Positions 2,650 through 48,014 of a DNA stretch of 64,000 bases are shown piece by piece. Position 1 is the first letter of the stretch, and the number at the start of each line of letters is the position of its first letter. Both the position numbers and the translations under genes were made by a program. Source of the DNA: a virus (lineage: Duplodnaviria; Caudoviricetes); the IMG/VR virus record IMGVR_UViG_3300037067_024922, positions 1 through 64,000 of that record. The stretch is one strand, 5' to 3'. The notes below the pieces were generated by a model. It searched no databases. It was not told where the DNA came from and saw only the letters and a list, made by a program, of their open reading frames with translations.

Positions 2650-4197
2650 ATGGCGAAGATACATAGGTACAGTGTTGATAATGATGTAGAGAAGCGTATT
2701 GTGACAGGAATGATTGTCAGCGACCCGTTTTGTACCAGTATCCAAAAAATGATCAAATTACAATATTTCCAAATTGATTATGCAAAGATTGTTGCTGGCT
2801 GGGTTCAGGAATATTATAAAGCTTGGAAAAAGGCGCCTGGAAGTACTCTCCAAAGTGTTTTTCAGTCAGAGAAGGCCTCATTGGCTGAGGCGGATGCTTA
2901 TTTGATAGGTAAATTTCTTGCAGACTTGTCTAAAGAGTATGAAGATGGGGAACCCTTCAATCATGAGTACTGGTTGGATAAGGCCAGGGATTATTTTCGA
3001 GAGCGGTCTCTTTCTATTTTGAAAGAAAAAATAGAGGTGAATTTGATTAGAGGCAAAATAGACCAGGCTGAGATTGAAGTAAAAAATTTCAGTAAGGTTG
3101 TGAAAGAACTTGGTACGATGAGCAATCCTTTTGAAAAATCAACTATCTATAAAATATTCAATGCCGAAAACGATTTCATTCTTAGGTTGCCAGACGAGTT
3201 AGGTGATTTGGCGGGTGATCTTGAGAGGGAATGGTTTATTGCATTTATGGGGCCAATGAAGAGAGGGAAGAGTTGGATGTTACAAGAACTTGCTTTTCAG
3301 GCCCTTTGTTGTAAATTAAAAGTGGTTATTTTTAGTTTAGAAATGAGCCAAAAGGAAATGACAAAAAGAATTTATGAAAGACTGACGGGGTTGGCTGGAA
3401 AGGCAGGAAAGGTTTCGTGGTCAACGTTTGATTGCGAACGTAATCAAGATAATACTTGTAGCCGTCCAGAAAGGACCTGTTCAAAAGGTGTTAAGGCTCC
3501 CGGAGAGGTTGTTATTGAACCAAAAGAAGTGAAAGGATACAAGCCTTGTGTGGCGTGTAAGCCAGAGAAAAATGAGGCTGATAATGGGGAGTATAGGCAA
3601 GCTGTTTGGAAGGTTTGGAAGGATCAAAAAGAGCCGATGGATTCAAAGATGGTACTTAAGAAGACAAAAGATTTTGAAAGGCTCTATGGCTCCAACTTCA
3701 GAGTGAAAGCGTATCCGTCTTTTATTGCATCTTTTGATGATATCCTTGCAGATTTAGATGATCTTTGGTATACAGACGAATTTGTTCCGGATGTTATTTG
3801 TATTGATTCTCTTGATATTATGGCTCCTCAAGGTGGGAATAATCTTTCTGAGAGAGGTCAAATTGATTGGGCTTGGAAGAGAGCAAAAGGGTTGGGTGGA
3901 GAAAGGCATTGTCTGGTGGCTACTGTTCTCCAAAGCAATCGGGCATCTATTACACAAAAGAGCGTTCAACAGGAAAATACTTCTGAGGATATACGGAAGT
4001 TGGCCCATGTAGATATCATGTTTGGTCTAAACCAGACTCCTGATGAAAAGAAAAAAGGCATTATGCGGGTTAGTACAGTTGTCCATCGTCATAAAGGATT
4101 CCAGTTTGGTAAGGATGTAATGATTTTACAAGGTCTTGATATTGGCCAGCCTTTACTGGAATCTCAATGGTCACAAAAGGAAGAAAAGGAAGATTGA
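2650..4197 (+). CDS. DnaB-like replicative helicase with Cys-rich insertion
   Basis: Walker A GPMKRGKS, FSLEMS, Walker B ICIDSLD, QSNR motif. Confidence 0.9.
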   Translation: MAKIHRYSVDNDVEKRIVTGMIVSDPFCTSIQKMIKLQYFQIDYAKIVAGWVQEYYKAWKKAPGSTLQSVFQSEKASLAEADAYLIGKFLADLSKEYEDGEPFNHEYWLDKARDYFRERSLSILKEKIEVNLIRGKIDQAEIEVKNFSKVVKELGTMSNPFEKSTIYKIFNAENDFILRLPDELGDLAGDLEREWFIAFMGPMKRGKSWMLQELAFQALCCKLKVVIFSLEMSQKEMTKRIYERLTGLAGKAGKVSWSTFDCERNQDNTCSRPERTCSKGVKAPGEVVIEPKEVKGYKPCVACKPEKNEADNGEYRQAVWKVWKDQKEPMDSKMVLKKTKDFERLYGSNFRVKAYPSFIASFDDILADLDDLWYTDEFVPDVICIDSLDIMAPQGGNNLSERGQIDWAWKRAKGLGGERHCLVATVLQSNRASITQKSVQQENTSEDIRKLAHVDIMFGLNQTPDEKKKGIMRVSTVVHRHKGFQFGKDVMILQGLDIGQPLLESQWSQKEEKED

Positions 4198-4213
4198 AAA
4201 GGTGAAATAAATA

Positions 4214-4242
4214 TTGACCAAGGTTGAAAGGTGGTCTATAAT
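4214..4242 (+). promoter_or_regulatory. Canonical sigma70-type promoter
   Basis: TTGACC-17 nt-TATAAT in an intergenic region. Confidence 0.75.
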
Positions 4243-4304
4243 GGTTGTAATGGAGGCGTGATCCAAAGAAATTGAACCCAAAAAATAAAAAAGGAGGAAA
4301 GACA

Positions 4305-4781
4305 ATGTTGGTAGACATCAAAGAAATAAAATTTAAGGAGTTGGCGGCCGCAGTGGCGGTTCTGAACGAGAGTGGTCTGCTCAAGGAACTTATCAAAACG
4401 GTTGGAGTAACAAAAGAGGCGATTGTCAAATCTTTCGTTGCCGGGGTTCAGTCCATTTCTGACGATAAGGATGGGAATTGGACGGGGCCACAGGAAGCCG
4501 CCGATTACTACGGCAAGATCGTGATCCCGGATAAAACGAAAGAGGAAGAAAAGTCTTCGAAAAAGAAGGGATCAAAAGCTCCGAAAGAAAAGAAAGAGAA
4601 GGTAGTGAAAGAAAAAGCGATCTCTTCTCTCGAAGTCATGCAGGGGCTCCTCGAAAAGAAGGCTTCCGATAACGAGATCACCAAGGTCTTTACCGAAAGG
4701 CTTCGGAAGAAAGTGCCCACGGCGTCTGTCGATTTCATTGCCAAGAGGATCAAGATTTATAAAGCATTGGCAAAGAAGTAG
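4305..4781 (+). CDS. Hypothetical Lys-rich protein
   Basis: RBS AAGGAGG before the ATG at 4305; hairpin follows the stop codon. Confidence 0.6.
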   Translation: MLVDIKEIKFKELAAAVAVLNESGLLKELIKTVGVTKEAIVKSFVAGVQSISDDKDGNWTGPQEAADYYGKIVIPDKTKEEEKSSKKKGSKAPKEKKEKVVKEKAISSLEVMQGLLEKKASDNEITKVFTERLRKKVPTASVDFIAKRIKIYKALAKK

Positions 4782-4845
4782 CTCGGCGCCCTGGGCTCTG
4801 TCCAGATTCCGCCGCTGGGCTTTCTATAAATAGAAGGAGGATCAA

Positions 4846-5214
4846 ATGATTTCAATCTGCCGTCGGTTTGAATTTCACGCCGCCCATCACTTACCAAATC
4901 ATCAAGGAAAATGCAAAAATGTTCATGGGCATTCATATATCCTGGAGGTGGAGGTTACAGGAGGAGTCCAAAAGGCGGGCCATGCAAAAGGTATGATTAT
5001 AGATTTTGGATCTTTGAAGAAGATTGTTTCAGAAAAAGTGATTGATTTAGTTGATCACAAAGATTTGAATTTGATTTGGGAAAATCCTACGGCCGAAGTT
5101 ATGGTTCAGGAGTTTTCCATTATTCTGCGTAATTCTCTTCCCAGATATATTCTCTTACAAAGAATTCGTTTATGGGAAACGAGTAATTCCTACGCGCAGT
5201 GGAGGACGGAATGA
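4846..5214 (+). CDS. queD: 6-carboxy-5,6,7,8-tetrahydropterin synthase
   Basis: AAHHL, CKNVHGHSY, DFGSLK, DHKDLN, PTAE and LWET motifs. Confidence 0.95.
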   Translation: MISICRRFEFHAAHHLPNHQGKCKNVHGHSYILEVEVTGGVQKAGHAKGMIIDFGSLKKIVSEKVIDLVDHKDLNLIWENPTAEVMVQEFSIILRNSLPRYILLQRIRLWETSNSYAQWRTE

Positions 5215-5876
5215 AAATACATAGCATATTTAAAAGCATTAATGGAGAGGTTTGCTCGAGTCATCAAGGGAGCCTAACAGTTTTTGTTCGTACCTTTGGT
5301 TGTAATTGTCGCTGTTCTTGGTGTGATTCCCAGTTTAGTTACAATGGGGAGGCTCCGAGAGAAATGAAGGTCCGAGAGATTGTCCGAGAGGTTGTTAAAT
5401 TAAACACTATCAATGTTACAATTACAGGTGGGGAACCGCTTTTACAGAAAGGTACTCCTAACCTAATCAGAAAACTTTCATTCCATGGGAAAAAGGTCTC
5501 TATTGAAACAAACGGGACGGTTTTTATCCCGTTGATTTCTGATTCTGAAAGAGTAAAATGGGTGGTTGATTACAAATTGCCATCCTCTGGTTATGAGAAT
5601 GAAGATGTGATTTATAAAAATTTTAGAAATCTGTTGAGCCATGATTTTGTCAAATTTGTTGTTGCTGATCGTAAGGATTTTGATCGAGCAGTTGAGGTTA
5701 TTCCTTTGATTAGAAATGAAGTAAGTTATTCGTTTGGTCCAAAATTTGCCCTTTCCCCTGTTTGGGGATCCTTGAAGCCAGAGACTCTTGCTCAATGGAT
5801 GATAAAAAATGAAGAGCTGTGCAAAATTGGTGCAATTTACAGCCTTCAGATTCATAAAATCTTGAGCGTCAAATAA
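5211..5876 (+). CDS. queE: 7-carboxy-7-deazaguanine synthase (radical SAM)
   Basis: IFKSINGE, FVRTFGCNCRCSWCDS, TGGEPLLQ, IETNG and LQIHK motifs. Confidence 0.95.
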   Translation: MKIHSIFKSINGEVCSSHQGSLTVFVRTFGCNCRCSWCDSQFSYNGEAPREMKVREIVREVVKLNTINVTITGGEPLLQKGTPNLIRKLSFHGKKVSIETNGTVFIPLISDSERVKWVVDYKLPSSGYENEDVIYKNFRNLLSHDFVKFVVADRKDFDRAVEVIPLIRNEVSYSFGPKFALSPVWGSLKPETLAQWMIKNEELCKIGAIYSLQIHKILSVK

Positions 5877-5926
5877 ATTTCATTTGGATCTCAGAATCTC
5901 ATCTATAATGATTTCAAGAGGTTGAC

Positions 5927-6508
5927 ATGAAAGATAAATTGCTCGTTGCAAGTGCAGAACGCAATGTTCGAGAATTGTTAAAATTCATTGGGGAAGATCC
6001 TGACCGTCCAGGATTAAAGGAAACTCCCTATCGTGTAATCAAGATGTATCAAGAATTCTTTTGTGGTTATGACTCAAAAAGGCTTCCTCGTATTATGACC
6101 GTTAATAATGGTGAGGATGGGGTAGTATACAATGAGATGTTGATTGATCAAGGTTATTTCTTTTCTTTTTGTGAGCATCATTGCATCCCGTTTTTTGGTC
6201 AGTATTTTTATGGGTATATTCCTGATCAAAAGGTTATGGGAGCATCTAAGATTGGGAGAACCATTGATTACTATGCGGGAAGATTACAGATTGCTGAACG
6301 TCTTGTCAATCAAGTTGTTAACAGAATTGGAGATGTTGTTCGTCCAAAAGGTCAAGTGCTTGTAATGAATGCCAGACATCTCTGTAAAGAAATGAGGGGG
6401 CTGAAAAAATGGGACAGTCCTTATGAAGCGATTGCGGTCAGGGGAGCTTTTGCAAAGAATCTTAATGGTTGTAAGGAAGAATTTATGTTGAGAATTCAAA
6501 GGAGGTAA
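5927..6508 (+). CDS. folE: GTP cyclohydrolase I
   Basis: GEDPDRPGLKETPYRV, CEHH, GASKI, RLQI and HLCKEMRG motifs. Confidence 0.95.
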   Translation: MKDKLLVASAERNVRELLKFIGEDPDRPGLKETPYRVIKMYQEFFCGYDSKRLPRIMTVNNGEDGVVYNEMLIDQGYFFSFCEHHCIPFFGQYFYGYIPDQKVMGASKIGRTIDYYAGRLQIAERLVNQVVNRIGDVVRPKGQVLVMNARHLCKEMRGLKKWDSPYEAIAVRGAFAKNLNGCKEEFMLRIQRR

Positions 6509-6510
6509 TT

Positions 6511-6837
6511 GTGGGAAGGTCTTATGTTGTTATCAGAACAAGTTTTGAAGCTCTCCATGCCTGGCCAGAGTGTCCCTACAAAAGTGTTGATTTTTTAAAA
6601 AGTTCTCACCGTCATGTTTTTCATGTTGAGATGAAGATTAGAACCGATGGGGACAGACAGATTGAACTTATCCTTTTAAAAAGAAATGTAGATATTTTCA
6701 TTTGCGCGGAATTTAAAGGAAAGGATCTCGGTAGAACTTCTTGCGAAGTATTGGCAAGGAAGTTGGCCGAGGAATTTAATGCTGATTCAGTGTCGGTTTT
6801 TGAAGACGCAGAAAATGGAGCAATATATGAAACATGA
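6511..6837 (+). CDS. dpdL: QueD-paralog T-fold protein, DpdL-like (putative CDG decarboxylase)
   Basis: LKSSHRHVF fits the LxxxHRHxF signature I recall for DpdL. SCE and C-terminal VFED..NGA parallel QueD; operon context agrees. Confidence 0.75.
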   Translation: MGRSYVVIRTSFEALHAWPECPYKSVDFLKSSHRHVFHVEMKIRTDGDRQIELILLKRNVDIFICAEFKGKDLGRTSCEVLARKLAEEFNADSVSVFEDAENGAIYET

Positions 6838-8143
6838 TTTTGTGATTATCGATCCTTCTTCGCCAGAATTTAACAGAGGTTCATTCTGTTATCTCACTTT
6901 CATTCTTTTTTCTGCTTTAAAGAGTAGAGGATTTAATGTTGTCTTGTTAGAGGATTTTTCTTGTGCTGATATTGACAGTGTTCCAGAGGCAGAAACATAT
7001 TTGGTTGGTCTTTGGTCTTATCCCCAGATTGATTCTTGTTTGGTTCTTAATAGGTTTCTCCCTAAGAGGCCTTCCTTTTTTGGATATTATCCTCTTATTG
7101 AAATCTTCCGATTTCAGAAGTACCGAATTTCTGATCAGGAAATTCAGGAAGGTATCATGAGCTATGTTGAGTATTTCGAGTTTTTTGAGAGGATACTTCT
7201 TTCTGATTGTGATATGCATTTGACCAAATATGAAGGAACGGTTTATCCTCTATTTACATCATATGGCTGTGTAAACAAATGTAAGTTCTGTCCCGTCTCT
7301 GTCAATTGTGATAGTAAAAGGATAGTTGTTCCTTTGGTAGATGTAAAAAGAGTTTTGAATTACTGCGAATTTTGTAATTACAAGAATATTCATTTCACAG
7401 ATGAGGATTTTTTCTTTGATGCTGATCGGGCAGCTGAGATTTTGAGATATACGCAAGGGAAAGGTTTCAATTACATTGCTTTAGGCAGTGTTCATACAGT
7501 CACCAAGTTCATCGAGAAATTCGGCATTGATATTTTTGATGAGACAGGTATGAGGCTGATTGAAGTCGGGCTTGAATCGGCGGATTCTGACTTGAATAAG
7601 GCTATGGGTAAAGGTGGTGCCGACCGATATTCCACTCTCGCCGAGTTAGTAAAAGGCAAAGTGGATATTTTTTGGCTTACTATGACTTTTTTTCCTGGAG
7701 AGACAATTCAAACCTTGCGATCGACAGGCCTGTTTTTGGAGAAGTATGGATTTAAGTTGGAGGATTTGTATGGTAGGATCCAAACCAATTCTACTGTAGG
7801 TGGGCTTGGTCAATTCTTTCAATCTTATGTTGGGACAATAGAGGATCAGGATATTGATACGAAGGGGATTTGTTTATCAGCCAGGCCCGTGAGGCTCTTG
7901 CCAAGTTTTATCCCGTATTCTTTTCTTAATTGCAAAATCAATCAGTGTAGGCCAATTTCTGATAATGAAAAGAAATGGTACCGTCTTTATAGAATTGATG
8001 AAAAGATTTTTAATGAAGCGATGGAGGAAGTATCTTTAGCAGAAGATATCTATGATCTTTTTGAAATTTTGACGTGTGATTTCTCTGTTAATGATGTTGT
8101 TGCCTTTTTGGCCATCTCTGCAAGGTTAGGTGTCATCTCATGA
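6827..8143 (+). CDS. Radical SAM enzyme with probable N-terminal B12-binding domain
   Basis: TSYGCVNKCKFC preceded by a Rossmann-like N-terminal domain of about 140 aa; IHFTDEDFF, VGLES..D.LNKAMGK and FFPGET are typical of class B radical SAM enzymes. Confidence 0.8.
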   Translation: MKHDFVIIDPSSPEFNRGSFCYLTFILFSALKSRGFNVVLLEDFSCADIDSVPEAETYLVGLWSYPQIDSCLVLNRFLPKRPSFFGYYPLIEIFRFQKYRISDQEIQEGIMSYVEYFEFFERILLSDCDMHLTKYEGTVYPLFTSYGCVNKCKFCPVSVNCDSKRIVVPLVDVKRVLNYCEFCNYKNIHFTDEDFFFDADRAAEILRYTQGKGFNYIALGSVHTVTKFIEKFGIDIFDETGMRLIEVGLESADSDLNKAMGKGGADRYSTLAELVKGKVDIFWLTMTFFPGETIQTLRSTGLFLEKYGFKLEDLYGRIQTNSTVGGLGQFFQSYVGTIEDQDIDTKGICLSARPVRLLPSFIPYSFLNCKINQCRPISDNEKKWYRLYRIDEKIFNEAMEEVSLAEDIYDLFEILTCDFSVNDVVAFLAISARLGVIS

Positions 8144-9141
8144 AAATCTGGAATATTCCTATAGAATCACTGGAAGAACGCTACAGTAAAAGCTGGAATG
8201 AATACTTCCCTGTTGCTTTTGAAGAAGCGGATGTCGAGTTTGAGACCATCTATCCAGAGCCTCTCTCTGATAAAATCCGTGATGGATCCTTTTTGGATAT
8301 TTGTGGGACGAATTATTTCAAAGCTTTGCAGTTGGTTACCTTGTCGAAGAAGTTGTATGATGGAGAAATTAAGGCTGGAGATATTATCTTTGTCCAGGAT
8401 CTTTGGTTCCCAGGATTGGAAGGGTTGGCGTATATCAGACAGGGCTTGAATTTGGATTTTAAGATCTGTGGAATCCTGCATGCTGGGACGTATGACCCTC
8501 ATGATTTCTTGACAAAGTGTGGAATGAAATCTTGGGGAAGGCATCTTGAGGTCTGCTGGTTTGATTTTGTTGACAAGATCTTTGTGGCAACCAATTTTCA
8601 TAAGGAATTGATTTATCAGAACAGACGAGTGGATTATGAAAAAATCGTCGTAACAGGGTTGCCGATTTATAGTAATCAATGTCATGATATGTCCAAGAAA
8701 GAAAATATTGTTGTCTTCCCTCATAGGCTTGATTCTGAGAAGCAACCAGAGATGTTTGATCTATTATCAAAAGAGGCTGCAACAGATGGCTGGCAGTTTA
8801 TCAAATCCAAAGAGGTTTGTAAAAACAAAAAAGAATACTTTGAACTTCTAAATCGGTCTAAAATAGCAGTATCATTTGCTCAGCAAGAGACATGGGGGAT
8901 TGCTCAGCAAGAAGCGTTATTTGCAAACTGTTTTCCAGTGGTGCCAAGTAGGTTAAGTTATGAAGAAATGTACTCCAATGTTTTTAAATATTCCTCTTTT
9001 GCTGATGCTCTTCTTTTGGTAAAAAAACTTATGGAGCCGGATTATTCTGATTTGGAAAGGTTACGGCAGAATAAGAACTTTTTACTTCTGAAAGGGATAA
9101 AGGCTATTCCGAATATGATAAAAGAGATGAGGAATTTATGA
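8140..9141 (+). CDS. GT-B fold (GT4-like) glycosyltransferase
   Basis: FPHRLDSEKQP, ETWGIAQQEA (EX7E-type motif), PVVP..LSYEEM. Confidence 0.85.
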   Translation: MKIWNIPIESLEERYSKSWNEYFPVAFEEADVEFETIYPEPLSDKIRDGSFLDICGTNYFKALQLVTLSKKLYDGEIKAGDIIFVQDLWFPGLEGLAYIRQGLNLDFKICGILHAGTYDPHDFLTKCGMKSWGRHLEVCWFDFVDKIFVATNFHKELIYQNRRVDYEKIVVTGLPIYSNQCHDMSKKENIVVFPHRLDSEKQPEMFDLLSKEAATDGWQFIKSKEVCKNKKEYFELLNRSKIAVSFAQQETWGIAQQEALFANCFPVVPSRLSYEEMYSNVFKYSSFADALLLVKKLMEPDYSDLERLRQNKNFLLLKGIKAIPNMIKEMRNL

Positions 9142-10382
9142 AACTAATGTTAGATAGTGGAGCGCCAAGCCTTTATAACTATCTGGTTCGGAAAAAGCAA
9201 ACCAAAGGCATCATGGGTTCTTTCTTAAAGGATCGGGCCAATGATACTTTTGAGTTCTTAGAGACAAAAGATTACAAAGATTACAAAAAGGAATATATTG
9301 ATTTTCTTCAAAAGAATGCCCAGTATTTTGATACCTATGTCAATCTTGATATCATTAACAATGCTGAAGCGACATGGAAAAACCAACTCGAGTTAGAGGC
9401 ATGCGGCCTCAAGCCTATCCCGGTTTTCCATTTTGGTTCAAATATCAAATATCTTTATCGATATTTGGAAAAAGGTTACAATTACATTGCTATGGGAGGT
9501 TTTATTCCCAATCCCGTGTCTATGTTACAGCCCGCCTTAGATAATCTTTGGACGAATGTTTTGTGCGATACTAATGGATTCCCAAAGGTAAGGGTTCACG
9601 GATTTGCTGTTACGTCGGCCAGGTTGGCATCCAGGTACCCATGGTATTCAGTTGACAGTACAAGTTGGGCTAAAATTGGTATTTATGGGGCAATTGTTGT
9701 CCCGAGACATGATAGTGATGGGAATTGGATTTATGATGGCTCCCCTCATGTTATTTTTGTTTCCAATAAGAGCAAGGCAAAAGATGAAGTTGATGGCAAG
9801 CATATTGATACTGTTGCTGATGATGAAAAAAAATACATATTGAAGTATTTGAAAGATCAGAGAGTTCCTCTTGGCAAATCTTCTTTTAAGAAAGAAAAAA
9901 ATAGTGAAGGATATGAACCAAAGGAAAATGAAAGATGGGTTGATTTAGCAATAAAAGATGAGATTGAAATTATTGAAGAACAGGGTGTTAGTAATTTTTT
10001 TGAATTGAGAAATAGGATCAATCTCTTTTTCTTTATTGGTCTCCAAAAATCTCGTCCAGGTTGGCCTTGGGAGTTCCACCCAGTGATTGATGGTTTTGAT
10101 TTAGATGATTGTCGGAAAGCTTCGGAAAAAGTTGCTCCGGGCTTATCTAAATTTTATGATTTTTCTGGGAGTTGGAGGTTGTATATTGCTGGTGAAAATC
10201 CTCATGGGGTCGATCCGAATACTCCGAGAGGAAGGAGTGATAGAGATATCTATGATTTTATGGCAACTCAAGCTATGGAAATGAACAGGCTCGTCTCGAA
10301 TTATTACAAGGCGTCTGTCAATAGAAATATTTTGCTTAAAAAGGAATTGGAGGCTGAAGAACGTGGAAATAAAAAAGGCTGA
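9138..10382 (+). CDS. dpdA: TGT-fold DNA base-exchange enzyme, DpdA-like
   Basis: LDSGA, NLDII, IPVFH, YIAMGG, VHGFA and SVDSTSW motifs of the transglycosylase barrel; last gene of the que cluster. Confidence 0.8.
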   Translation: MKLMLDSGAPSLYNYLVRKKQTKGIMGSFLKDRANDTFEFLETKDYKDYKKEYIDFLQKNAQYFDTYVNLDIINNAEATWKNQLELEACGLKPIPVFHFGSNIKYLYRYLEKGYNYIAMGGFIPNPVSMLQPALDNLWTNVLCDTNGFPKVRVHGFAVTSARLASRYPWYSVDSTSWAKIGIYGAIVVPRHDSDGNWIYDGSPHVIFVSNKSKAKDEVDGKHIDTVADDEKKYILKYLKDQRVPLGKSSFKKEKNSEGYEPKENERWVDLAIKDEIEIIEEQGVSNFFELRNRINLFFFIGLQKSRPGWPWEFHPVIDGFDLDDCRKASEKVAPGLSKFYDFSGSWRLYIAGENPHGVDPNTPRGRSDRDIYDFMATQAMEMNRLVSNYYKASVNRNILLKKELEAEERGNKKG

Positions 10383-11429
10383 TTTGCAAAAGATACTTGA
10401 AGATCTCCGGCCAGGTCTTGCCAAGAGAGACATTGTTAATACTCTTTCTGACTTTACTTTTTTTGGTGATCGAATTGGGACATTTAATGACCAAATATCT
10501 ATTAGTTATCCTTTTGAGTTTGGCCCTTCATGCTCTGTCGATGGTCAGAGTTTTTATCAGGTGGTTATGAATAGTGTTGAAGGGGATATCGCTCTTAGGC
10601 TGAAAGAAGAAAAGGAGGTTTCTGAAGGAGAGAAGCCAAAATTGTTTTTGATAATTAAAAGTGGTGGAGGAAAAGAAGGTTCAAAAGCTTCCTTAAAGAC
10701 CTCAGAAGCGGTTGCCGTCAATAAAATTAAGGTCCCGTCAATGAAATCGAAACTTTGGAGAACAATTCCTGAGAGGTTTATTGAAGGAGTTAAGTTCTGT
10801 TCCTTTAGTGTTTCGACGGATTTGACAAGGCCTTATTTGACCTGTGTTGCTGTTAAAAAGGATAAGATTTATTCTTCTGATGGTCTTCGAATTTCTCAAT
10901 ATAGTTTGGATGGAGAGTTTGATGAAGATGATTTTTTGATTTTGGGAGAATCGGCGGCCATTTTGGCAAAATAAAAACCATCGAAAAATACGTGAAAGAT
11001 GACAATTGGATTCATTTTCGTACAGAGGAAAATATCATCTTTTCCTGCCGGGTTATCAAAGAGACTTTTCCTGATGTCAGTAAGCATTTTGTAATCAAGC
11101 ATGGGGTTTCATTTGTTTTGCCTAAGGGAGTGAAGGAAGTTGTTGATTCCGTTTCGACTGTTGCTGATGCAGAGTTTTCGGTTGATAGAGTTGTTAAGGT
11201 GTCCATTTCTGGTAATTCTATCGAATGTTCTGGGAGAGGTAGCCAAGGGTCTTTTGATAAATGGTTCACTTTGGAGAAGAAAGTTGAAGGGAATATTCAA
11301 TTTGGTATCAATCCTTTGTTCTTTTCCGAGATACTTTCTGAGTCTGATCTGAAGATGAAGCTTGATGAGAACCATGCTCTGTTTGAGACAGAGATTTTCC
11401 AACACGTTATGTGCCTCCCAAGAAAATAA
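10363..11429 (+). CDS. dnaN: DNA polymerase III beta sliding clamp-like protein, interrupted by a -1 frameshift near 10968-10974
   Basis: Two ORFs join into about 355 aa if one A is added to GCAAAATAA. Clamp-like motifs STDLTRPYLTCV, SSDGLRI, FPD and FGINP..F. Confidence 0.75.
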
Positions 11430-11456
11430 AGAATAGGATATAATTATTCTTGAGGA

Positions 11457-14400
11457 ATGAAAATGGAATTTTGTCATCTACATGTTCATACTGAGCATTC
11501 TCTTTTAGATGGATATGGGAATGCCAAACAATATATCTCTAAGGCGAAAGAACTTGGTTTTAAATACATTGCTTGTACGGATCATGGGAACCAAGATGGG
11601 TTGATTAAATTTCAAAAAGAGGCAGAGAAACAAGGTGTCTCACCTATTCTTGGTTGTGAACTTTATCTTGTTCCTGATGCTTCTATCAAAAAGGCTGGAG
11701 AATTTCGACATCATATAACAGTGTTAGTGAAGGATGAAGATGGCTGGCAAAATCTCTGTAAAATATTGACAGAGGCAAATCTGCATGGATTTTATTACAA
11801 GCCAAGGACAGATTTTGATACTCTGAAAAAATATCATAAAGGCTTGGTCTTTTTGAGTGGCTGTACTTCAAGCGTAATGATTACTAAGGAGGGCGTAGAT
11901 TTTTTTCTCGAGTTGTTTGATTTGTGTTCTGGTGATTGTTATCTTGAGGTGATGCCTCATTTATTTGATGACCAAATTAATCTTAATAAATTGTGTATTG
12001 GACAAACGATTCCGTTGGTCGCAACAAACGATTGTCATTATGTGAATGAAGAAGATGATAAAGTTCATGAAGTTCTTTTGTCAATTCAGACAAAGGCGAA
12101 GTGGACTGATAAAAATCGTTTTCGTTTTGAGACTAAAGGGTTATTTTTGCGATCGGCCGAACAGATGAAATTGGCTTTTCAGAAACAAGGCGTTTTGTTA
12201 AAATCTCAGTATTTGTCAGCTATGCGTAATACTATTGAGATTGCTGAAAAATGTTGCGATTTCAGGATTAAGAAACAAGATATATTCCTTCCATCCATTT
12301 TGGCGAAAGGCGAATCAGAAGATAGATTTCTAAAGAAACTTTGTTATAGTGGATACGAAAAGATCTTCGGGGTGCCAGAATGGAGCCAATCTTACATTGA
12401 CAGATTTGATGAAGAGTTCGATATGATCAAGCGTAAGAATTTTGTTCGTTATTTTCTGGTTGTCTGGGAATTAACAGAGTGGTGTAGAAAGAACAATATC
12501 ATGATTGGCCCTGGCAGAGGATCTGTTGGTGGCAGTTTGATTGCCTATCTCATGGGGATTACAACAGTTGATCCAATCAAATTCAATCTTCTCTTTTCCA
12601 GGTTTATTGCTGAAGATAGGATCGATTATCCTGATATTGATTTGGATTTTGAGGACGTGAAGAGATCATTAATCAGAGGTCATTTGGAAGAGATGTATGG
12701 AAAGAACAATATTGCTTCTGTTTCGACATTTATGGATATGAAAGGCAGAGCCGCTATCAGGGATGTTGCAAGGGTTTTTGAAATCCCGTATGGAGAGGTT
12801 GACGAGTTTGCTAAGATTATCCAAGATGAAGAGAATGGAGGAAATTCAATTGAGGCTGCTTCTAAGACTCCAGAAGGATTTTCTTTTGTGAGGAAGTATC
12901 CTGACGTTTTGAAGATTGCCGCCAAATTAGAAGGACAATGTAGAGGTGTTGGGCAGCATGCTGCGGCCCTTATTGTATCTGCCGATGATTTAACTTTAGG
13001 GACTCGGTGTAATCTTTCTGTTAGGTCGGGCCAAGAAGTAGTAAATTGGGATAAGGATGATACTGAGTATGTAGGTCTTATGAAACTTGATGTTCTTGGT
13101 CTTAACACTTTATCAATTTTGAATGAGACTCGTAGGCTTGTGGAACAAAATCATGGGAAGAAACTTGTTTTTGAAAAGATTGAGTTAGATAATCCGCAGG
13201 TCTTTGATATGCTATCCCAAGGTCAAACAGTGGGAGTATTTCAATTCAATACATGGCCAACGACAAAGTTATGTAAAGAGATCGGAATTAATTCATTTGG
13301 TTTGATGAGTGATGTTATTGCTTTAGTGAGGCCGGGACCTGCGGATAGTGGTATGACCGCCGATTTTATTAAAAGGAAACATGGTAGTAAATGGCAGAAA
13401 AAACACAGGATATACGAGCATATTACAAGAGATACTTATGGAATTGTTATCTATCAAGAGCAAGTGATGCAAGTGATTAGTGAGGTTGCTGGCTTGCCAT
13501 ATTCTACTGCGGATAAAATCAGGAAAATTATTGCTAAAAAAAGAGATGTCAAAGAATTTGAAAAATATCAACAGTTGTTTGTTGATGGATGTAAAAAAGA
13601 AGATACGCTTTCTACTAAAGAAGCTTTGGAGTTTTGGTCGGCATTAGAAAAGCATGCCAGTTATTCTTTTAATAGAAGCCATTCTGTTGAATATGCTATG
13701 ATTGCGTATTGGTGTGCATTCTGCAAGATTTATTTCCCGGCTGAGTTTCTTTGTGCCAATCTTACATATGGTTCTGATGGAAAAAAGGAGGAATTGGTTA
13801 AAGAGGCCAGAAGGCTTGGTCTTAAAATAGTTCTTCCAAAGGTTGGAGTTTCAAATTCTCATCATTGGGTTGTGAAAGATAATAATCTGTATGTTCCTTT
13901 CATCGAGATAAAAGGAGTTGGCGAAAAGGTTGCTAAGGATCTTTTGGAGTATCAACCTCCTGAGCCCAAGAGGGTTATTATCGACCAAAAAGTAGTAAGG
14001 ATGAAGCAGAAAGGATTTTTTGATGAGGATAAAGTTGAAGAGCCAAGAACAGTTTTAAAAGAACAAAAAGAGAGGAAGATAGATAAAATTCTGAAGGCAA
14101 TAGGTGCGGTTGGCAATGAACCTGAAGCGGACCTTTCCAAATATTTTTCTTTTGATGTGATAGGCGACAAACGGGATGAATACCCAAATCTTCATGGGCG
14201 TCTTGGCTTTGATTTCCCGCCTGAGGACCTTGACTCCATTTTGTCTTTGAACGTGCCAGAAGGCTTTATTCGTGGCAAAATACATCAAGCCAAGTTCCAA
14301 AATCCAGAACTTTTGTATTGTCGGGAATGTGACCTTGTTAAACAGTGTAAAAGGCCAGTGATGCCATCGTCGGGCAGGTATAATCTTGCTATTATAGGAG

Positions 14401-14846
14401 AGGCGCCTGGTAAGAATGAGGATGATGAAGGTCGAGGGTTTGTAGGGCGGGCGGGTGATTTAGTTTGGAAAGAATTAGGAAGACATGACTTGGTTAGAAG
14501 GTTTTTCCATGTTACAAATTGTACAAAATGTTATCCGGGAACAATTAAAACTCCTGGTGATCGACATTTGGCGGCTTGTAAAAGATGGTTGGACGAAGAG
14601 ATTAGAAAAGCAGACATAAGATTAGCTTTGGTGTTTGGCAATACTGGGTTAAAATACTTTGAAGGAGAAGATAGTGGTATTACCAAACGTAACGGAGAAA
14701 CAGAATGGCTTGAGGCGTATAGCATGTGGGTTTGCTGGTGCCTACATCCTGCGTCTGTCCTCAGAAACCCAGACAGTAAAAAGGATTTTCAGATAGGAAT
14801 TGCAAACTTTGCAGAAAAAATTCACCTTCTTGGAGGTTTGAAGTAA
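11457..14846 (+). CDS. dnaE: DNA polymerase III alpha subunit fused at the C-terminus to a family-4 uracil-DNA glycosylase
   Basis: HLHVHTEHSLLDG, GPGRGSVGGSL, PDIDLDF, KLDVLGL and YSFNRSH, followed by CREC, GEAPG, FVGRAG and HPASVLR. Confidence 0.95.
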   Translation: MKMEFCHLHVHTEHSLLDGYGNAKQYISKAKELGFKYIACTDHGNQDGLIKFQKEAEKQGVSPILGCELYLVPDASIKKAGEFRHHITVLVKDEDGWQNLCKILTEANLHGFYYKPRTDFDTLKKYHKGLVFLSGCTSSVMITKEGVDFFLELFDLCSGDCYLEVMPHLFDDQINLNKLCIGQTIPLVATNDCHYVNEEDDKVHEVLLSIQTKAKWTDKNRFRFETKGLFLRSAEQMKLAFQKQGVLLKSQYLSAMRNTIEIAEKCCDFRIKKQDIFLPSILAKGESEDRFLKKLCYSGYEKIFGVPEWSQSYIDRFDEEFDMIKRKNFVRYFLVVWELTEWCRKNNIMIGPGRGSVGGSLIAYLMGITTVDPIKFNLLFSRFIAEDRIDYPDIDLDFEDVKRSLIRGHLEEMYGKNNIASVSTFMDMKGRAAIRDVARVFEIPYGEVDEFAKIIQDEENGGNSIEAASKTPEGFSFVRKYPDVLKIAAKLEGQCRGVGQHAAALIVSADDLTLGTRCNLSVRSGQEVVNWDKDDTEYVGLMKLDVLGLNTLSILNETRRLVEQNHGKKLVFEKIELDNPQVFDMLSQGQTVGVFQFNTWPTTKLCKEIGINSFGLMSDVIALVRPGPADSGMTADFIKRKHGSKWQKKHRIYEHITRDTYGIVIYQEQVMQVISEVAGLPYSTADKIRKIIAKKRDVKEFEKYQQLFVDGCKKEDTLSTKEALEFWSALEKHASYSFNRSHSVEYAMIAYWCAFCKIYFPAEFLCANLTYGSDGKKEELVKEARRLGLKIVLPKVGVSNSHHWVVKDNNLYVPFIEIKGVGEKVAKDLLEYQPPEPKRVIIDQKVVRMKQKGFFDEDKVEEPRTVLKEQKERKIDKILKAIGAVGNEPEADLSKYFSFDVIGDKRDEYPNLHGRLGFDFPPEDLDSILSLNVPEGFIRGKIHQAKFQNPELLYCRECDLVKQCKRPVMPSSGRYNLAIIGEAPGKNEDDEGRGFVGRAGDLVWKELGRHDLVRRFFHVTNCTKCYPGTIKTPGDRHLAACKRWLDEEIRKADIRLALVFGNTGLKYFEGEDSGITKRNGETEWLEAYSMWVCWCLHPASVLRNPDSKKDFQIGIANFAEKIHLLGGLK

Positions 14847-28016: not shown

Positions 28017-28196
28017 ATGAGTTACAGATACCGATGCCAAAAATGTCGTCATTGTTTTGAAAAGAGTAAACCTGGTCCTGTTGTATGCAATAACTGTGGC
28101 CATCTTTATATTGATTGGTTGAATTTTAAGGAAGTGTTGGAGAGCCTGGGTAATTATAAAAATGAAATCGTCAAGGAAACCCGTAACAGTACGTGA
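28017..28196 (+). CDS. Small zinc-ribbon protein
   Basis: YRCQKC...CNNCG. Confidence 0.55.
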   Translation: MSYRYRCQKCRHCFEKSKPGPVVCNNCGHLYIDWLNFKEVLESLGNYKNEIVKETRNST

Positions 28197-29544
28197 TTTA
28201 GATCTCCCTGGAATCCTTACCTCCAGATGGACTAAATTGAGACATCATCCAGAGCAGTATAGATTATGGCATTTCCCTGCTCGCTTTAATGTTAACCCTG
28301 CAGGAAGAAGGTCAGGGAAAACAGAATTGGCCAAGAGAAAATTGGTCAATAGGTCAATGGTGGGTACAACTTTCGATGATGCGAGATTCTTTGCTGCAGC
28401 CCCTACATACAATCAGGCCAAAAAGATTTATTGGGATGATCTTAAACGTCTTACACCGAGATGGTTCCAATCAAAACCTCCATCTGAATCAGAGTTGATT
28501 ATTTATGGTATAAATAATTCAACCATTCATGTTCTCGGTATGGATAAACCAGAGCGAATTGAAGGGCAGCCTTGGGATGGTGGTATACTTGATGAATATG
28601 GTAATATGAAAAAAGAGACCTGGCCACAACACGTCAGGCCTGCATTATCAGATAGAAGAGGATGGTGTGATCTGATTGGGGTGCCTGAAGGAAGGAATCA
28701 CTACTATGATATTGCCAAAGAAGCTCAATCAAATAAGTCTGGCGAATGGGACTATTTTTGGTGGAAGAGTGCAGATATACTTCCGCCATCTGAAATAGAA
28801 GCGGCTAAGCAAGATCTGGACGAATTGACATATCAGCAGGAGTATGAAGGTAGTTTTATCAATTTTGAAGGAAGGACTTATTATGCATATTTTGATTTTA
28901 CTCATAATGCCCGTATTGCTTATGATCCTAATCAACCATTAATCTTTACTCTTGATTTTAATGTTGCGCCGGGGACAGCCGCAGTGATTCAGGAAAAGCA
29001 GGTAAGGGATCTTCAGACTAATGCAGTATTGATTGGTGAGACTGTGACAGGGATAATAGGAGAGGTTTACATCCCTCGCAATTCAAATACCGTTCTTGTT
29101 TGTAATCGATTAATAAAAGATTGGGGTAATCATCAAGGGAGAGTTATCTGCTATGGTGATCCAACAGGAGGGAACAGAGGTACCGCTAAATTGCAAGGTA
29201 GTGATTGGGATCTTGTAAAGCAAATTTTGGGAGGCCATTTTGGGGATCGATTTTCTTTGGATGTTGCAAGGGGCAATCCATCTGAACGAGATAGGGTCAA
29301 TTCGGTTAATTCAAGGTTCCGAACTGTAACAGGGAAAATAAGAATGATGATTGACCCAAACAAAGCTCCTCATGTTGCCAAGGATTTTGAAGGTGTGCAA
29401 TGCGTAAAGGGCGGCAGTGGTGAGATAGACAAAAAGAAAAATCCCGAGCTGTCCCATTTATCAGATGGCGTTGGATATTACATCCATAGGAAATATCCAA
29501 TTAGGAAGATAGAGAGCGGGATGGTAGATGTGAAAGGAACTTAA
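28162..29544 (+). CDS. terL: Terminase large subunit
   Basis: AGRRSGKT, APTYNQAK, Walker B ILDEY, QEYEGSF, nuclease LDFN and DPTG, HLSDGVGY. Confidence 0.95.
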   Translation: MKSSRKPVTVRDLDLPGILTSRWTKLRHHPEQYRLWHFPARFNVNPAGRRSGKTELAKRKLVNRSMVGTTFDDARFFAAAPTYNQAKKIYWDDLKRLTPRWFQSKPPSESELIIYGINNSTIHVLGMDKPERIEGQPWDGGILDEYGNMKKETWPQHVRPALSDRRGWCDLIGVPEGRNHYYDIAKEAQSNKSGEWDYFWWKSADILPPSEIEAAKQDLDELTYQQEYEGSFINFEGRTYYAYFDFTHNARIAYDPNQPLIFTLDFNVAPGTAAVIQEKQVRDLQTNAVLIGETVTGIIGEVYIPRNSNTVLVCNRLIKDWGNHQGRVICYGDPTGGNRGTAKLQGSDWDLVKQILGGHFGDRFSLDVARGNPSERDRVNSVNSRFRTVTGKIRMMIDPNKAPHVAKDFEGVQCVKGGSGEIDKKKNPELSHLSDGVGYYIHRKYPIRKIESGMVDVKGT

Positions 29545-32783: not shown

Positions 32784-32808
32784 ATTTGTCCTACTGCCGT
32801 GCGACATT

Positions 32809-32848
32809 CGGGAAGGGGAGCACTGGCACTCTCCCCTTCCCGGCTTTT
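32809..32848 (+). terminator. Intrinsic terminator
   Basis: CGGGAAGGGGAG/CTCCCCTTCCCG 12-bp stem plus T run. Confidence 0.75.
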
Positions 32849-32869
32849 AGATTAGGAGGACATTGCAGT

Positions 32870-33676
32870 ATGATCAAGTTTGGTCTGATAGGCAATGGTA
32901 AGATTGCGCAACGTCATAAAAATGCAATTAAACATGTTGGTGGTGAATTGGTATGGGTGAGTGATCCATTGTTAAAAGGACAAGAATTGATTGATGGGAC
33001 CATATATCAAGGAGATATTCCTTTGTGTGATATGAAAGGATTAGAAGGAGTTTGGGGCAACCAAATAGATTATGTTGTCATCTGTTCTCCGACATATCTC
33101 CATCGTCAGCAGACACAAGAAGCCTTGAAATATAATAAGCAAGTCATTTGCGAAAAGCCTCTCTGCTTACCTTGGGAGCCATTGATTGATGATGATAGGA
33201 TCAATGTATGTCTACAGTTGCGCTACATTGAAAATCTTCCCAAGGCGGCAGATCTTGTCAGGGCGGTGATGGTCAGGGATGAGGAATTTTTCAAGTCATG
33301 GAAGGGAGACCCAAGACAAGCAGGAGGAAACCTGTATGAGTTTTTTATTCATTATATTGATCTTGCCATCTTGCTTGGCGCAGGTTTTGAAGGCAGCGTG
33401 TTGCCGGAAGGGAAGCAAGTAAGGGAAATAATTTTTAACAAAGAGGCTTGTCAAGGGCCAAGTATTTCTCAAAATAAAGAATTTAAGCTGGACATCATGG
33501 CGATTGATATGCAATCCCTTTATAATCGCATGTATGAAGACATCTTGAATGGTGGCGGCATCAAGCCAAAGGATATTTTTTACCTCACCTGGGTGCTGAA
33601 TCAGAACAGCATCAAGCATGGTTTCAGGAAGAGTGGGATTGATAGCCCAATCGTTTTAGGCAAGGAACTGTTATGA
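32870..33676 (+). CDS. Gfo/Idh/MocA oxidoreductase, WbpB/WlbA-like UDP-GlcNAcA 3-dehydrogenase
   Basis: IGNGKIAQRH, ICSPTYLH, ICEKP, LQLRY and KSWKGDP motifs. Confidence 0.85.
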   Translation: MIKFGLIGNGKIAQRHKNAIKHVGGELVWVSDPLLKGQELIDGTIYQGDIPLCDMKGLEGVWGNQIDYVVICSPTYLHRQQTQEALKYNKQVICEKPLCLPWEPLIDDDRINVCLQLRYIENLPKAADLVRAVMVRDEEFFKSWKGDPRQAGGNLYEFFIHYIDLAILLGAGFEGSVLPEGKQVREIIFNKEACQGPSISQNKEFKLDIMAIDMQSLYNRMYEDILNGGGIKPKDIFYLTWVLNQNSIKHGFRKSGIDSPIVLGKELL

Positions 33677-38735: not shown

Positions 38736-39461
38736 ATGAGAGCAGTTTTGATTGGATATGGCGAGGTTGGGAAAGGACTGTACGAAGTTCTTTCTTTCTA
38801 TCACGAGATGGCGATTCATGATCCTGACCTTGAGTATTTGGCGTATGATGATTTTCTTGATCCCGACCTGCTTCTTATTTCCATTCCATACAACGAGAAA
38901 TTTATTGAGGTGGTGGGGAGATATCAATCATATTTTAAGCCAAAAGCGACAGTTGTTTTTTCCTCCGTCCCTGTCGGTACGTGCTCTTACCTTGGCGCAA
39001 TACATTCTCCGATTGAAGGTCAACACGATAATATGGCCAAGTCAATCCGGGCATTCCCAAGATGGATTGGAGGAGGAAGAGATTACTGGGAAATAGATCT
39101 TGCAGTAAATTTCTTCCTTCAAGCAGGATTGAAAATTGTAAGGGTTCAATCGGCGGACATAACAGAGTTCCTGAAACTTCAATCCACCACCATCTATGGC
39201 ATCAACATTGAGTGGGCAAGGTACTGTAAGCAGGTGCTTGATAGTCTTGGGGCAGGTTATGAGATGCTAAAAGATTACAATCGGCATTATAACAAGCTTG
39301 TCATGGAGAATGGGCAATGGGAATATCAGCGTTGCAATCTTGGTCCTCCTCCGGGGAAGATAGGAGGACATTGTGTTCTTCCCAATGCAAAGTTGCTGCA
39401 AAAGGGGTTTGGCCATTCATTTATACAGACGGTTTTGGATCTGAATGAGGCGAAGGAATGA
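38736..39461 (+). CDS. UDP-glucose/GDP-mannose dehydrogenase family protein (short form, WbpA-like)
   Basis: IGYGEVG, SSVPVGT, HSP, E..KL..T and IGGHC motifs; no C-terminal UDP-binding domain. Confidence 0.8.
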   Translation: MRAVLIGYGEVGKGLYEVLSFYHEMAIHDPDLEYLAYDDFLDPDLLLISIPYNEKFIEVVGRYQSYFKPKATVVFSSVPVGTCSYLGAIHSPIEGQHDNMAKSIRAFPRWIGGGRDYWEIDLAVNFFLQAGLKIVRVQSADITEFLKLQSTTIYGINIEWARYCKQVLDSLGAGYEMLKDYNRHYNKLVMENGQWEYQRCNLGPPPGKIGGHCVLPNAKLLQKGFGHSFIQTVLDLNEAKE

Positions 39462-39901
39462 TCAAGGAATTTCAAGGTGAGTACAGATGGCTGAGTAATT
39501 TTTATCCCGTGGCTATACGATTTCAAGGCTGGTTATTTCCTTCGGTTGAACATGCTTATCAATCGGCCAAGTCAGATGACATTCACTGGAAGAGATTCTG
39601 TTTAAATCCTGATGTAAGAGCCGGAGAGGTGAAAAAGAGGTCGCATCATATCGCCGTAGTGCCAGGTTGGCGACAAGGTCGTTTGAAAATAATGGAGGAA
39701 CTTGTAGATCTAAAATATGATCAGGAGCCTTTTAAGTCAAAACTGCTCGCTACGATGGAGGAGCATATACAGGAAGGGAACTTCTGGTATGACACATTTT
39801 GGGGTGTTGATTTGAGAACAGGTCGGGGTGAGAATAATCTCGGCAAGATCATAATGGAGAAGAGACAAAGACTGCAATACGTCTCATCGCAGGAGAGCTA
39901 A
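39458..39901 (+). CDS. NADAR (YbiA) family N-glycosidase
   Basis: LSNFY, SVEHAYQSAK, LLAT, EGN.W.DTFWG and GENNLGKIIM motifs. Confidence 0.92.
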   Translation: MIKEFQGEYRWLSNFYPVAIRFQGWLFPSVEHAYQSAKSDDIHWKRFCLNPDVRAGEVKKRSHHIAVVPGWRQGRLKIMEELVDLKYDQEPFKSKLLATMEEHIQEGNFWYDTFWGVDLRTGRGENNLGKIIMEKRQRLQYVSSQES

Positions 39902-42022: not shown

Positions 42023-42532
42023 ATGTCATCAATCACAGTACAGCAATCCTCTACCACAGAATCTTCCTGTCCCAAAGATCCAATCATTCATTCCGCTACA
42101 CAAATTTGGCATCCTCATCTTTGCAATATTTATGGCAATTGTATTATAGGCGCTCATTGTAACATAGGTGCTTTTGTTGAAATCGGTCCTGGCGTTATCA
42201 TTAAAGATTGGGTCAGGATTGGAGCCCATTGTTTTATACCAGAAGGGGTTACGATTGAGGAGGATTGTTTTGTTGGGCCGGGAACTATTTTTTGTAACGA
42301 TAGATATCCTCCTGGAGGAAAAGAGGCGTGGAGGCCTGTTCTCGTAAGGAAAAAGGCCAGTATCGGAGCAGGATCGGTTATTCTTCCGGGCGTGGAAATA
42401 GGGGAAGGTGCGATGATTGGCGCAGGGACAGTTGTGACAAGGAATATCCCTGCTGGATGGAGAGTTGTTGGCAATCCGGCCAGAAGAATATTGCCCCATA
42501 TTATGAATTGTGAGAAGGGAGAAATTGTGTGA
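42023..42532 (+). CDS. Left-handed beta-helix sugar N-acetyltransferase (WbpD/WlbB-like)
   Basis: Hexapeptide repeats, FCNDRYP, VVGNPAR. Confidence 0.88.
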   Translation: MSSITVQQSSTTESSCPKDPIIHSATQIWHPHLCNIYGNCIIGAHCNIGAFVEIGPGVIIKDWVRIGAHCFIPEGVTIEEDCFVGPGTIFCNDRYPPGGKEAWRPVLVRKKASIGAGSVILPGVEIGEGAMIGAGTVVTRNIPAGWRVVGNPARRILPHIMNCEKGEIV

Positions 42533-43704: not shown

Positions 43705-43846
43705 GAAAGAAGAAAATCCCCAAAAGCAATTATTGTGCATTTTCCCATAATTGTGACAAAGAGATAAACTGCAGAGATGGGAATTTCTGCTCTGTTTTTC
43801 AGCACACAAAACTTTTCACAAGTCTTAGATTTGAAGGAGAAAAGAG

Positions 43847-44134
43847 ATGCCAAGTCCGGAAGAAATGACTGTAGAGTATTTCAGGCTGATGCAAATAGCA
43901 GGCCGTCAGATCAGCCTGTCTACTACAGGCCACTTGTGGTTTTCTGAGAGAGAGTGGTGGATATTGCATGATCGTGGCCGGGATAGAACCTTCGGGATAT
44001 TGGCAGATGGGAGAATCATTGAATATACAGAGATGATCTCCTTTGAAGCAATCATGGAAAATCCAGGAGACGTTTGCGGGTTTGCAGATGCAAGGTATTT
44101 GGGGATTGGCGAATTTCATCACTGGGAGAAATGA
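43847..44134 (+). CDS. Hypothetical protein
   Basis: RBS AAGGAG; coupled to the next gene. Confidence 0.45.
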   Translation: MPSPEEMTVEYFRLMQIAGRQISLSTTGHLWFSEREWWILHDRGRDRTFGILADGRIIEYTEMISFEAIMENPGDVCGFADARYLGIGEFHHWEK

Positions 44135-46285: not shown

Positions 46286-46287
46286 AT

Positions 46288-46323
46288 AAATATCTTTTGT
46301 GTTATAAAAAAATAAGGTAAAAT
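46288..46323 (+). promoter_or_regulatory. AAATATCTTTT-N19-TAAAAT promoter
   Basis: Copy of the recurrent motif. Confidence 0.65.
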
Positions 46324-46342
46324 CCATTCAAAAGGAGAAGGT

Positions 46343-47404: not shown

Positions 47405-47406
47405 AT

Positions 47407-47553: not shown

Positions 47554-47555
47554 AT

Positions 47556-47993: not shown

Positions 47994-48014
47994 AAAATAG
48001 AATTGGAGAAATCA

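Follow-up and report, generated by a model that had tools for sequence, protein, structure and literature searches.

We analysed a window of viral DNA (Duplodnaviria; Caudoviricetes) that comprises the first 64 kb of the 92,765-bp IMG/VR virus record IMGVR_UViG_3300037067_024922, which stems from an uncultured phage and is rated 100% complete by CheckV. Positions 4846-10382 of this 64,000-nucleotide window contain seven co-directional genes on the plus strand which, in the list of open reading frames (ORFs), overlap or are separated by gaps of at most about 50 nt. The encoded proteins comprise enzymes of 7-deazaguanine synthesis and insertion into DNA, together with a second radical S-adenosylmethionine (radical SAM) enzyme and a glycosyltransferase (GT). 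A first-pass annotation, made from the sequence alone, had described the locus as a queD-queE-folE-dpdL-radical SAM-GT4-dpdA array; its coordinates match the ORF list and the identities of the genes were confirmed by profile searches. The seven genes are:

4846..5214, + strand: queD, 6-carboxytetrahydropterin synthase; 122 aa; CxxxHGH motif (CKNVHGH in the translation); PF01242, E 3e-29
5199..5876, + strand: queE, 7-carboxy-7-deazaguanine (CDG) synthase, a radical SAM enzyme; 225 aa; phrog_2076, E 1e-36
5927..6508, + strand: folE, GTP cyclohydrolase I; 193 aa; PF01227, E 4e-47; NF006826 above its cut-off
6511..6837, + strand: dpdL, QueD paralogue and proposed CDG decarboxylase; 108 aa; LxxxHRHxF motif; phrog_17812, E 2e-16
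6815..8143, + strand: AprD4-like radical SAM gene; 442 aa; ORF open from 6779; PF04055; CX3CX2C motif
8140..9141, + strand: gene for a GT4-like retaining GT-B glycosyltransferase; 333 aa; E250-x7-E258 and R196/K201
9138..10382, + strand: dpdA, DNA guanine transglycosylase; 414 aa; phrog_887, E 4e-41

The queD product matched TIGR03367 (E 2e-25) with 89.0 bits, slightly below the 89.25-bit cut-off, and QueE models were the top NCBIfam matches of the queE product (E 2e-46) with scores under the curated cut-offs (158 vs 300 bits). The queD and queE genes overlap by 16 nt and a gap of 2 nt separates folE from dpdL. From dpdL to dpdA all junctions overlap, as had been described: by 23 nt between dpdL and the radical SAM gene, given a start at the ATG at position 6815 (the database gene call, 442 aa), and by 4 nt at both the radical SAM/GT and the GT/dpdA junctions. 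A scan of positions 4000-11600 for promoters and terminators found sites no more frequently than in shuffled sequence, and the boundaries of the operon are thus undefined. Searched against 50,697 phage records, the operon DNA presented no match at the nucleotide level.

FolE, QueD, and QueE convert GTP to CDG, and DpdA swaps guanine in DNA for a deazaguanine base. The DpdL of the window carries the sequence FLKSSHRHVF, which corresponds to the LxxxHRHxF signature found in place of CxxxHGH in the definition of DpdL by Cui et al. 2023 (PMC10516641). The signature is kept in 90 of the 94 distinct DpdL homologue ORFs, and the window protein is 38% identical to the DpdL of Cellulophaga phage phiST across 94% of its length (tblastn). 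With its 108 aa, it presented no match to the Pfam PTPS model. QueC (PF06508) and QueF (PF14489), whose genes had been reported as absent from the window, were matched nowhere in the whole 92,765-bp record, and preQ0 and preQ1 are therefore out of reach for the phage-encoded pathway. QueC was also absent from all 50 related, GT-bearing records that were tested, including six with a completeness of 90% or more. Given this lack of QueC, DpdL is expected to divert the pathway to 7-deazaguanine (DG), by homology to phiST, in which the DNA nucleoside dDG was measured (PMC10516641). These results agree with the CDG/DG branch assigned by the first-pass annotation. On the basis of the homology to phiST, we predict that the window pathway ends at this branch, with DG as the favoured base.

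The phiST module (FolE-QueD-QueE-DpdL-DpdA3) shares with the window the precursor genes, a homologous DpdL with LxxxHRHxF, the lack of QueC, and a transglycosylase of the DpdA family. In contrast to the window, which has both genes, phiST lacks the GT as well as any second radical SAM enzyme, and it produces plain dDG. The window DpdA resembles that of CAjan-type phages more closely than DpdA3 of phiST: across 239 phage records, it is ~35% identical to genes annotated as DpdA, e.g., those of CAjan and WildeMaa (tblastn). The DSG, HGF, and SVDS columns are conserved in the DpdA alignment, and the window protein carries a C-terminal extension that is missing from most of its relatives. To our knowledge, the activity of DpdL has never been reconstituted. 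E. coli expressing just DpdL and DpdA produced no dDG, and the authors of that experiment suggest that further enzymes may be missing (PMC10516641).

The GT and the radical SAM enzyme are the two components that set the window apart from phiST, and their linkage to the deazaguanine genes was surveyed across metagenomic phages. A total of 80 GT-seeded and 52 radical SAM-seeded IMG/VR loci were annotated by iterative hidden Markov model searches with the seven window proteins, and linkage was counted on the 49 distinct GT loci flanked on both sides by 4 kb or more of sequence. DpdL was found in all 49 of these loci, DpdA in 47, FolE in 46, QueE in 45, and QueD in 42; in 55 of the 80 GT-seeded loci, the GT lies beside DpdA. 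All radical SAM-seeded loci that are uncut by a contig end contain DpdL, and all but two of them (L135 and L136) contain the GT. The complete order queD, queE, folE, dpdL, radical SAM, GT, dpdA is present on three metagenomic contigs whose radical SAM homologues are 56%, 49%, and 41% identical to that of the window, and on which the module adjoins a PolIII-alpha or PolA replicase. The linkage of the GT with DpdL and DpdA survives shuffled gene order and differing phage backbones. Overall, the module was identified in about 100 independent loci; IMG/VR alone holds about 90 distinct loci, and metagenomes contain hundreds of homologues. Because the same set recurs in about 100 independent loci, this gene arrangement is far beyond chance. 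Judging from this linkage, which holds down to 30-40% identity, the GT and the radical SAM enzyme belong to the deazaguanine module. The first-pass annotation had tied the two extra enzymes to dpdL and dpdA, and our co-occurrence search bears this out: the linkage is conserved, also among phages whose replicative polymerases differ.

Some loci present variations around this module. On a phage-like 64.8-kb contig of a metagenome-assembled genome (MAG) of Ructibacterium sp. (L145:5246-11760), the gene order is PolA, an unknown protein of 150 aa, GT, DpdA, a Vut_1/YhhQ-type transporter, and a sliding clamp. Biosynthetic genes are absent beside this GT-DpdA pair and no QueD was found in the MAG, which suggests the salvage of an imported deazaguanine precursor joined to the GT-DpdA pair. 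In several loci, homing-endonuclease genes (HNH/NUMOD, GIY-YIG) are inserted between the module genes. Some module-bearing phages have a UDG domain fused to PolA or placed ahead of it (L006:13389-16027; context of protein P0054); UDG-PolA fusions are described as typical of phages with T-modified genomes (PMC13697223, a 2026 paper).

The GT of the window presented no Pfam match at E<=0.01, PF00534 included. It has more than 700 homologues, and PF00534 is detected in many of those that are 50-60% identical to it. An AlphaFold model built from 26 sequences (predicted local distance difference test, pLDDT, 90) adopts a GT-B fold and matches retaining enzymes of the GT4 family over its full length (BshA with Z 25.9, MshA and GlgM with 24.4, and LmbT with 23.8; Foldseek, VIA). 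E250-x7-E258, R196, and K201 are invariant in the 26 sequences, and these columns likely represent the EX7E motif of GT4 enzymes and their phosphate-binding R/K pair. The fold and the invariant motifs predict a GT that looks catalytically competent. The median isoelectric points of the GT (5.9) and of the radical SAM enzyme (5.5) are acidic, whereas that of DpdA is basic (8.6). These values speak weakly for small-molecule substrates, and they slightly favour an action on the free base ahead of its insertion. A predicted complex of DpdA (residues 1-310) with the GT obtained a score of 0.00, which counts neither for nor against their interaction. The alpha- and beta-glucosyltransferases of phage T4 lie outside the top 50 structural matches of the GT, although a distant kinship is still possible. 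Like the window GT, they represent GT-B enzymes of phage base modification, and in both cases the sugar is expected to guard the DNA against restriction. The T4 enzymes, however, use the hydroxymethyl group of a pyrimidine as acceptor (5-hydroxymethylcytosine DNA), whereas 7-deazaguanine has no evident hydroxyl.

The second radical SAM enzyme had been labelled B12-type by the first-pass annotation. Its radical SAM barrel (PF04055) carries the CX3CX2C motif (C152, C156, C159), which is invariant in the radical SAM homologues, and its AlphaFold2 model (pLDDT 92) presents an N-terminal Rossmann-like domain ahead of the barrel, as in class B enzymes. The top structural match is AprD4, the 1,2-diol dehydratase responsible for deoxygenating an aminosugar during apramycin biosynthesis (PDB 6FD2; Z 22.8, root-mean-square deviation 3.4 A, 358 residues aligned; VIA). 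AprD4 stands ~4 Z units ahead of the next family and is also the top PDB profile match of the enzyme (hmmsearch, E 4e-11). The class B enzymes (TsrM, CysS, MgmA/QCMT, OxsB, and TokK) share the two-domain layout and match at Z 12-19, under AprD4; the scores of the B12 enzymes include 18.6 for MgmA, 18.2 for CysS, 17.7 for TsrM, and 17.3 for OxsB. More than 225 homologues of the window enzyme were found, and the Pfam B12-binding domain (PF02310) was detected in none of 29 homologues at E<=1, nor among the precomputed domains of 120 homologues. AprD4 and the window enzyme thus have in common their whole-chain fold and an N-terminal Rossmann-like domain that lacks a recognisable B12 signature. They differ in sequence (13-15% identity only), and the substrate of the window enzyme, if it is a sugar, would be attached to a nucleobase. 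According to a 2026 review (PMC12931638), AprD4 belongs to those radical SAM enzymes that have a Rossmann-related domain but bind no cobalamin. The B12-type label was therefore not upheld: it fits the architecture only, and cobalamin dependence is not the most likely reading. A methylthiotransferase identity (MiaB/RimO-like; fold match at Z 16-17) was considered and rejected since the N-terminal domain is without the conserved cysteine triad. Some homologues of the enzyme (722-747 aa; Pfam intein PF14890) and of QueE (~400-600 aa; faint PT-HINT matches) are apparently intein-bearing; the examples are L011:5078-7321, L037:4830-6635, and protein P0015.

The AprD4-like enzyme is not the only radical enzyme associated with the GT. 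Of the 51 distinct GT modules that have 5 kb or more of flanking sequence, 22 encode the AprD4-like enzyme and 29 do not. The gaps of these AprD4-negative modules often hold another radical SAM enzyme of ~290-330 aa with a SPASM/twitch domain: this type is present in 16 of the 51 modules, 13 have neither enzyme, and none has both. Among proteins of solved structure, the SPASM-type enzyme comes closest in sequence to BtrN (E 2.6e-12) and, after it, to BlsE. BtrN is a radical SAM dehydrogenase of 2-deoxy-scyllo-inosamine, and both BtrN and BlsE act on carbohydrates; their likeness is to this alternative enzyme of the sister modules and not to any protein of the window. The radical enzyme adjoins the GT in 35 of 42 cases for the AprD4-like type and in 14 of 23 for the SPASM type. 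In the GT tree, the two types are interleaved and the well-supported branches require at least seven gains or losses. Because the GT keeps close relatives with or without a radical enzyme, its acceptor must exist without the product of the AprD4-like enzyme. Since two unrelated families alternate by the GT, and since their nearest relatives abstract a sugar carbinol hydrogen, it is suggested that the radical step tailors the transferred sugar. With tblastn, neither the AprD4-like enzyme nor the SPASM type (E<=1e-8) matched any of the 50,697 phage records, so that uncultured phages are the only known source of both variants.

We give about an even chance to the reading that the operon carries out DNA hypermodification on the DG branch of the 7-deazaguanine pathway, extended by glycosylation through the GT and by a radical tailoring step. 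FolE, QueD, and QueE would convert GTP to CDG, which DpdL would convert to DG. The GT would then glycosylate the deazaguanine with a nucleoside diphosphate sugar from the host, either as the free base before its insertion by DpdA or in DNA afterwards. The AprD4-like enzyme would subsequently alter the sugar by hydrogen abstraction at a carbinol carbon, a dehydration or oxidation that would yield a deoxy- or keto-sugar without cobalamin. This tailoring would be optional and interchangeable, as sister modules possess a BtrN-like twitch/SPASM enzyme or none. DpdA would place the base in DNA, before or after these steps on the sugar. The product would be a glycosylated 7-deazaguanine in virion DNA, with the presumed role of blocking restriction enzymes or deazaguanine-sensing defences.

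Several observations weigh against this reading. 7-Deazaguanine is without a hydroxyl that could serve as an obvious acceptor, and C-glycosylation at C7 or C8, or glycosylation at N2 or O6, would be unusual for a GT4 enzyme; moreover, a substrate is not established by similarity of fold. A GT homologue with 41% identity lies in the chromosome of Paenibacillus polymyxa amid unrelated genes, with no deazaguanine genes nearby. The Ructibacterium locus makes GT and DpdA the tightest pair of the module, and the acceptor may not be DG-specific. AprD4 works together with the reductase AprD3, for which the module has no conserved counterpart. The radical SAM gene lies directly 3' of dpdL in 30 of 39 loci. 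Finally, L135 (6400-12800) and L136 (1-6900) encode a radical SAM enzyme of ~30% identity beside a DpdL-like gene, and no GT was found on these two contigs, both of which are incomplete; a base-directed role of the radical SAM enzyme fits them better than a sugar-directed one. The gene order of L136 is QueD, QueE, a DpdL-like protein of 179 aa, radical SAM, FolE, a papain-like protein (Peptidase_C1), QueC, DpdA, and ParB-N.

Alternatively, the radical SAM enzyme might cooperate with DpdL in acting on the base or a pterin intermediate, as an aid to decarboxylation under anoxic conditions or to produce another 7-substituent, while the GT acts independently. We regard this as unlikely. It would be consistent with the adjacency, and frequent overlap, of dpdL and the radical SAM gene in those 30 loci, with the combination of DpdL-like and radical SAM genes without a GT in L135 and L136 (the latter also with QueC and DpdA), and with the failure of DpdL and DpdA alone to generate dDG in E. 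coli (PMC10516641). However, phiST makes dDG with DpdL and without this enzyme, which is moreover missing from most DpdL modules, and both its replacement by a BtrN-like enzyme with carbohydrate relatives and its frequent adjacency to the GT point to a sugar. The enzymes of L135 and L136, at only ~30% identity, may also have diverged in function.

The first-pass annotation had proposed a different order of events, in which a class B cobalamin radical SAM enzyme alkylates C7 of 7-deazaguanine and the new group subsequently receives a sugar from the GT. In favour of this order, TsrM methylates an indole carbon, a reaction chemically near the pyrrole ring of deazaguanine, and besides the class-B-like layout and the matches to TsrM, CysS, MgmA, OxsB, and TokK described above, the core of the enzyme weakly matches the NCBIfam models of PhpK, HpnJ, and B12-binding radical SAM proteins. 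Nevertheless, this scheme appears improbable: PF02310 is missing from all 29 homologues, the best relative by both structure and sequence is the cobalamin-free AprD4, and a methyl or alkyl group offers no glycosyl acceptor. In addition, the GT occurs without the enzyme in 29 of the 51 modules and close relatives of the GT switch between states, so that the GT cannot need its product. We consider it just as improbable that the GT and the radical SAM enzyme act elsewhere (on a host envelope glycan, a small metabolite, or a protein) and only share a transcript with early genes of DNA metabolism. In favour of such a role, the acidic GT is nearest in structure to GT4 enzymes for small molecules and polysaccharides, one of its homologues lies in a bacterium outside any deazaguanine context, and the phage has an unrelated sugar-nucleotide pathway. 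Against it, the GT occurs with DpdL in 49/49 and with DpdA in 47/49 loci despite shuffled order and differing backbones, the Ructibacterium locus retains the GT-DpdA pair beside a YhhQ-type precursor transporter though biosynthetic genes are absent, and the sugar-nucleotide genes of the window are unlinked to the GT elsewhere (DegT in 1 of 26 other GT-bearing records).

The core of the proposed glycosylation module, i.e., the GT with the deazaguanine genes, extends to cultured phages. By tblastn, the GT was found in 23 phage records. It directly adjoins DpdL, near QueE, in Acidovorax phage ACP17, in the PA5oct group, and in Synechococcus phage BUCT-ZZ01. In Phosso and BUDD, it lies within a deazaguanine cluster and, in BUDD, directly 5' of an annotated transglycosylase. 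A search for the radical SAM family found QueE as the sole match in ACP17 and no match in PA5oct and BUCT-ZZ01. The genes adjacent to the GT in ACP17 (gp123), PA5oct (gp168), and BUCT-ZZ01 could not be linked to the window DpdA by pairwise BLASTP. DSGG-like motifs are visible in gp123 of ACP17 and gp168 of PA5oct, which are candidate members of the DpdA family. ACP17 is said to encode dpdA and is one of the two phages with dpdL that were tested by Cui et al., in the excerpted text of which no glycosyltransferase is mentioned (PMC10516641). The DNA of PA5oct resists several restriction enzymes, is reported to contain a modified G of unknown identity, and is a target of nucleases that recognise hypermodified DNA (PMC12191111). 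Xanthomonas phage BUDD additionally encodes a 165-aa 'PAPS reductase family' protein between FolE and GT-DpdA (L150:5365-5859). This protein has the PP-loop fold, which is that of the QueC superfamily, and it could perform a QueC-like or another ATP-dependent step.

The system is a member of the known phage deazaguanine family, on its DG branch, with two added enzyme classes. Eight 7-deazaguanine derivatives are known in phage DNA; we know of none among these eight that carries a sugar or that needs a radical SAM enzyme beyond QueE. Full-text literature searches, within the portions of text that they returned, contained no paper in which DpdA or DpdL is connected with a glycosyltransferase or with a radical SAM enzyme in addition to QueE, and likewise no base of the kind for which the first-pass annotation had known of no precedent. 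It is conceivable, though we lean slightly against it, that the glycosylated 7-deazaguanine is the first sugar-bearing purine analogue in natural DNA, possibly with a C-glycosidic bond at C7 or C8, that it is tailored by one of two radical SAM enzymes, and that its core genes are those of PA5oct, ACP17, BUCT-ZZ01, BUDD, and Phosso. If true, this would account for the modified G of the PA5oct-type jumbo phages, whose therapeutic use is under study, would take DNA glycosylation chemistry beyond pyrimidines to a purine analogue, and would provide DpdL with a set of obligatory partners. The swap between AprD4-like and BtrN-like enzymes would represent a natural experiment with tailoring enzymes, and an arms race with modification-sensing defences is its probable driver. 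Since the core is also present in cultivable phages, its product is directly identifiable by mass spectrometry, and the high interest of the module stems from the direct test that these phages allow.

Outside the operon, the window contains a sugar-nucleotide pathway (32786-33676 and 42023-48917) located between the terminase (28162-29544) and later structural genes. The pathway consists of a GFO/IDH/MocA oxidoreductase, a hexapeptide acetyltransferase, a DegT aminotransferase, two NAD-dependent epimerase/dehydratases, a WbmS-like deacetylase-hexapeptide acyltransferase fusion, and a FemAB-like protein, and it resembles a diacetamido-sugar route. These genes (32.8-48.9 kb) were rejected as a general source of the GT donor on the DegT count given above. 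A NADAR-domain protein (39458-39901; PF08719, E 1e-14) is encoded upstream of sugar-nucleotide genes. Downstream of dpdA, a sliding-clamp homologue (phrog_947) is encoded as two ORFs in different frames (10363-10974 and 10992-11429), which cover profile positions 5-203 and 217-331, respectively, and which are followed by an ORF of 1129 aa (11457-14846). The split may reflect a frameshift, a sequencing error, or a genuinely divided gene; in locus L004 and others, a single clamp ORF of ~355 aa is found where the window has two.

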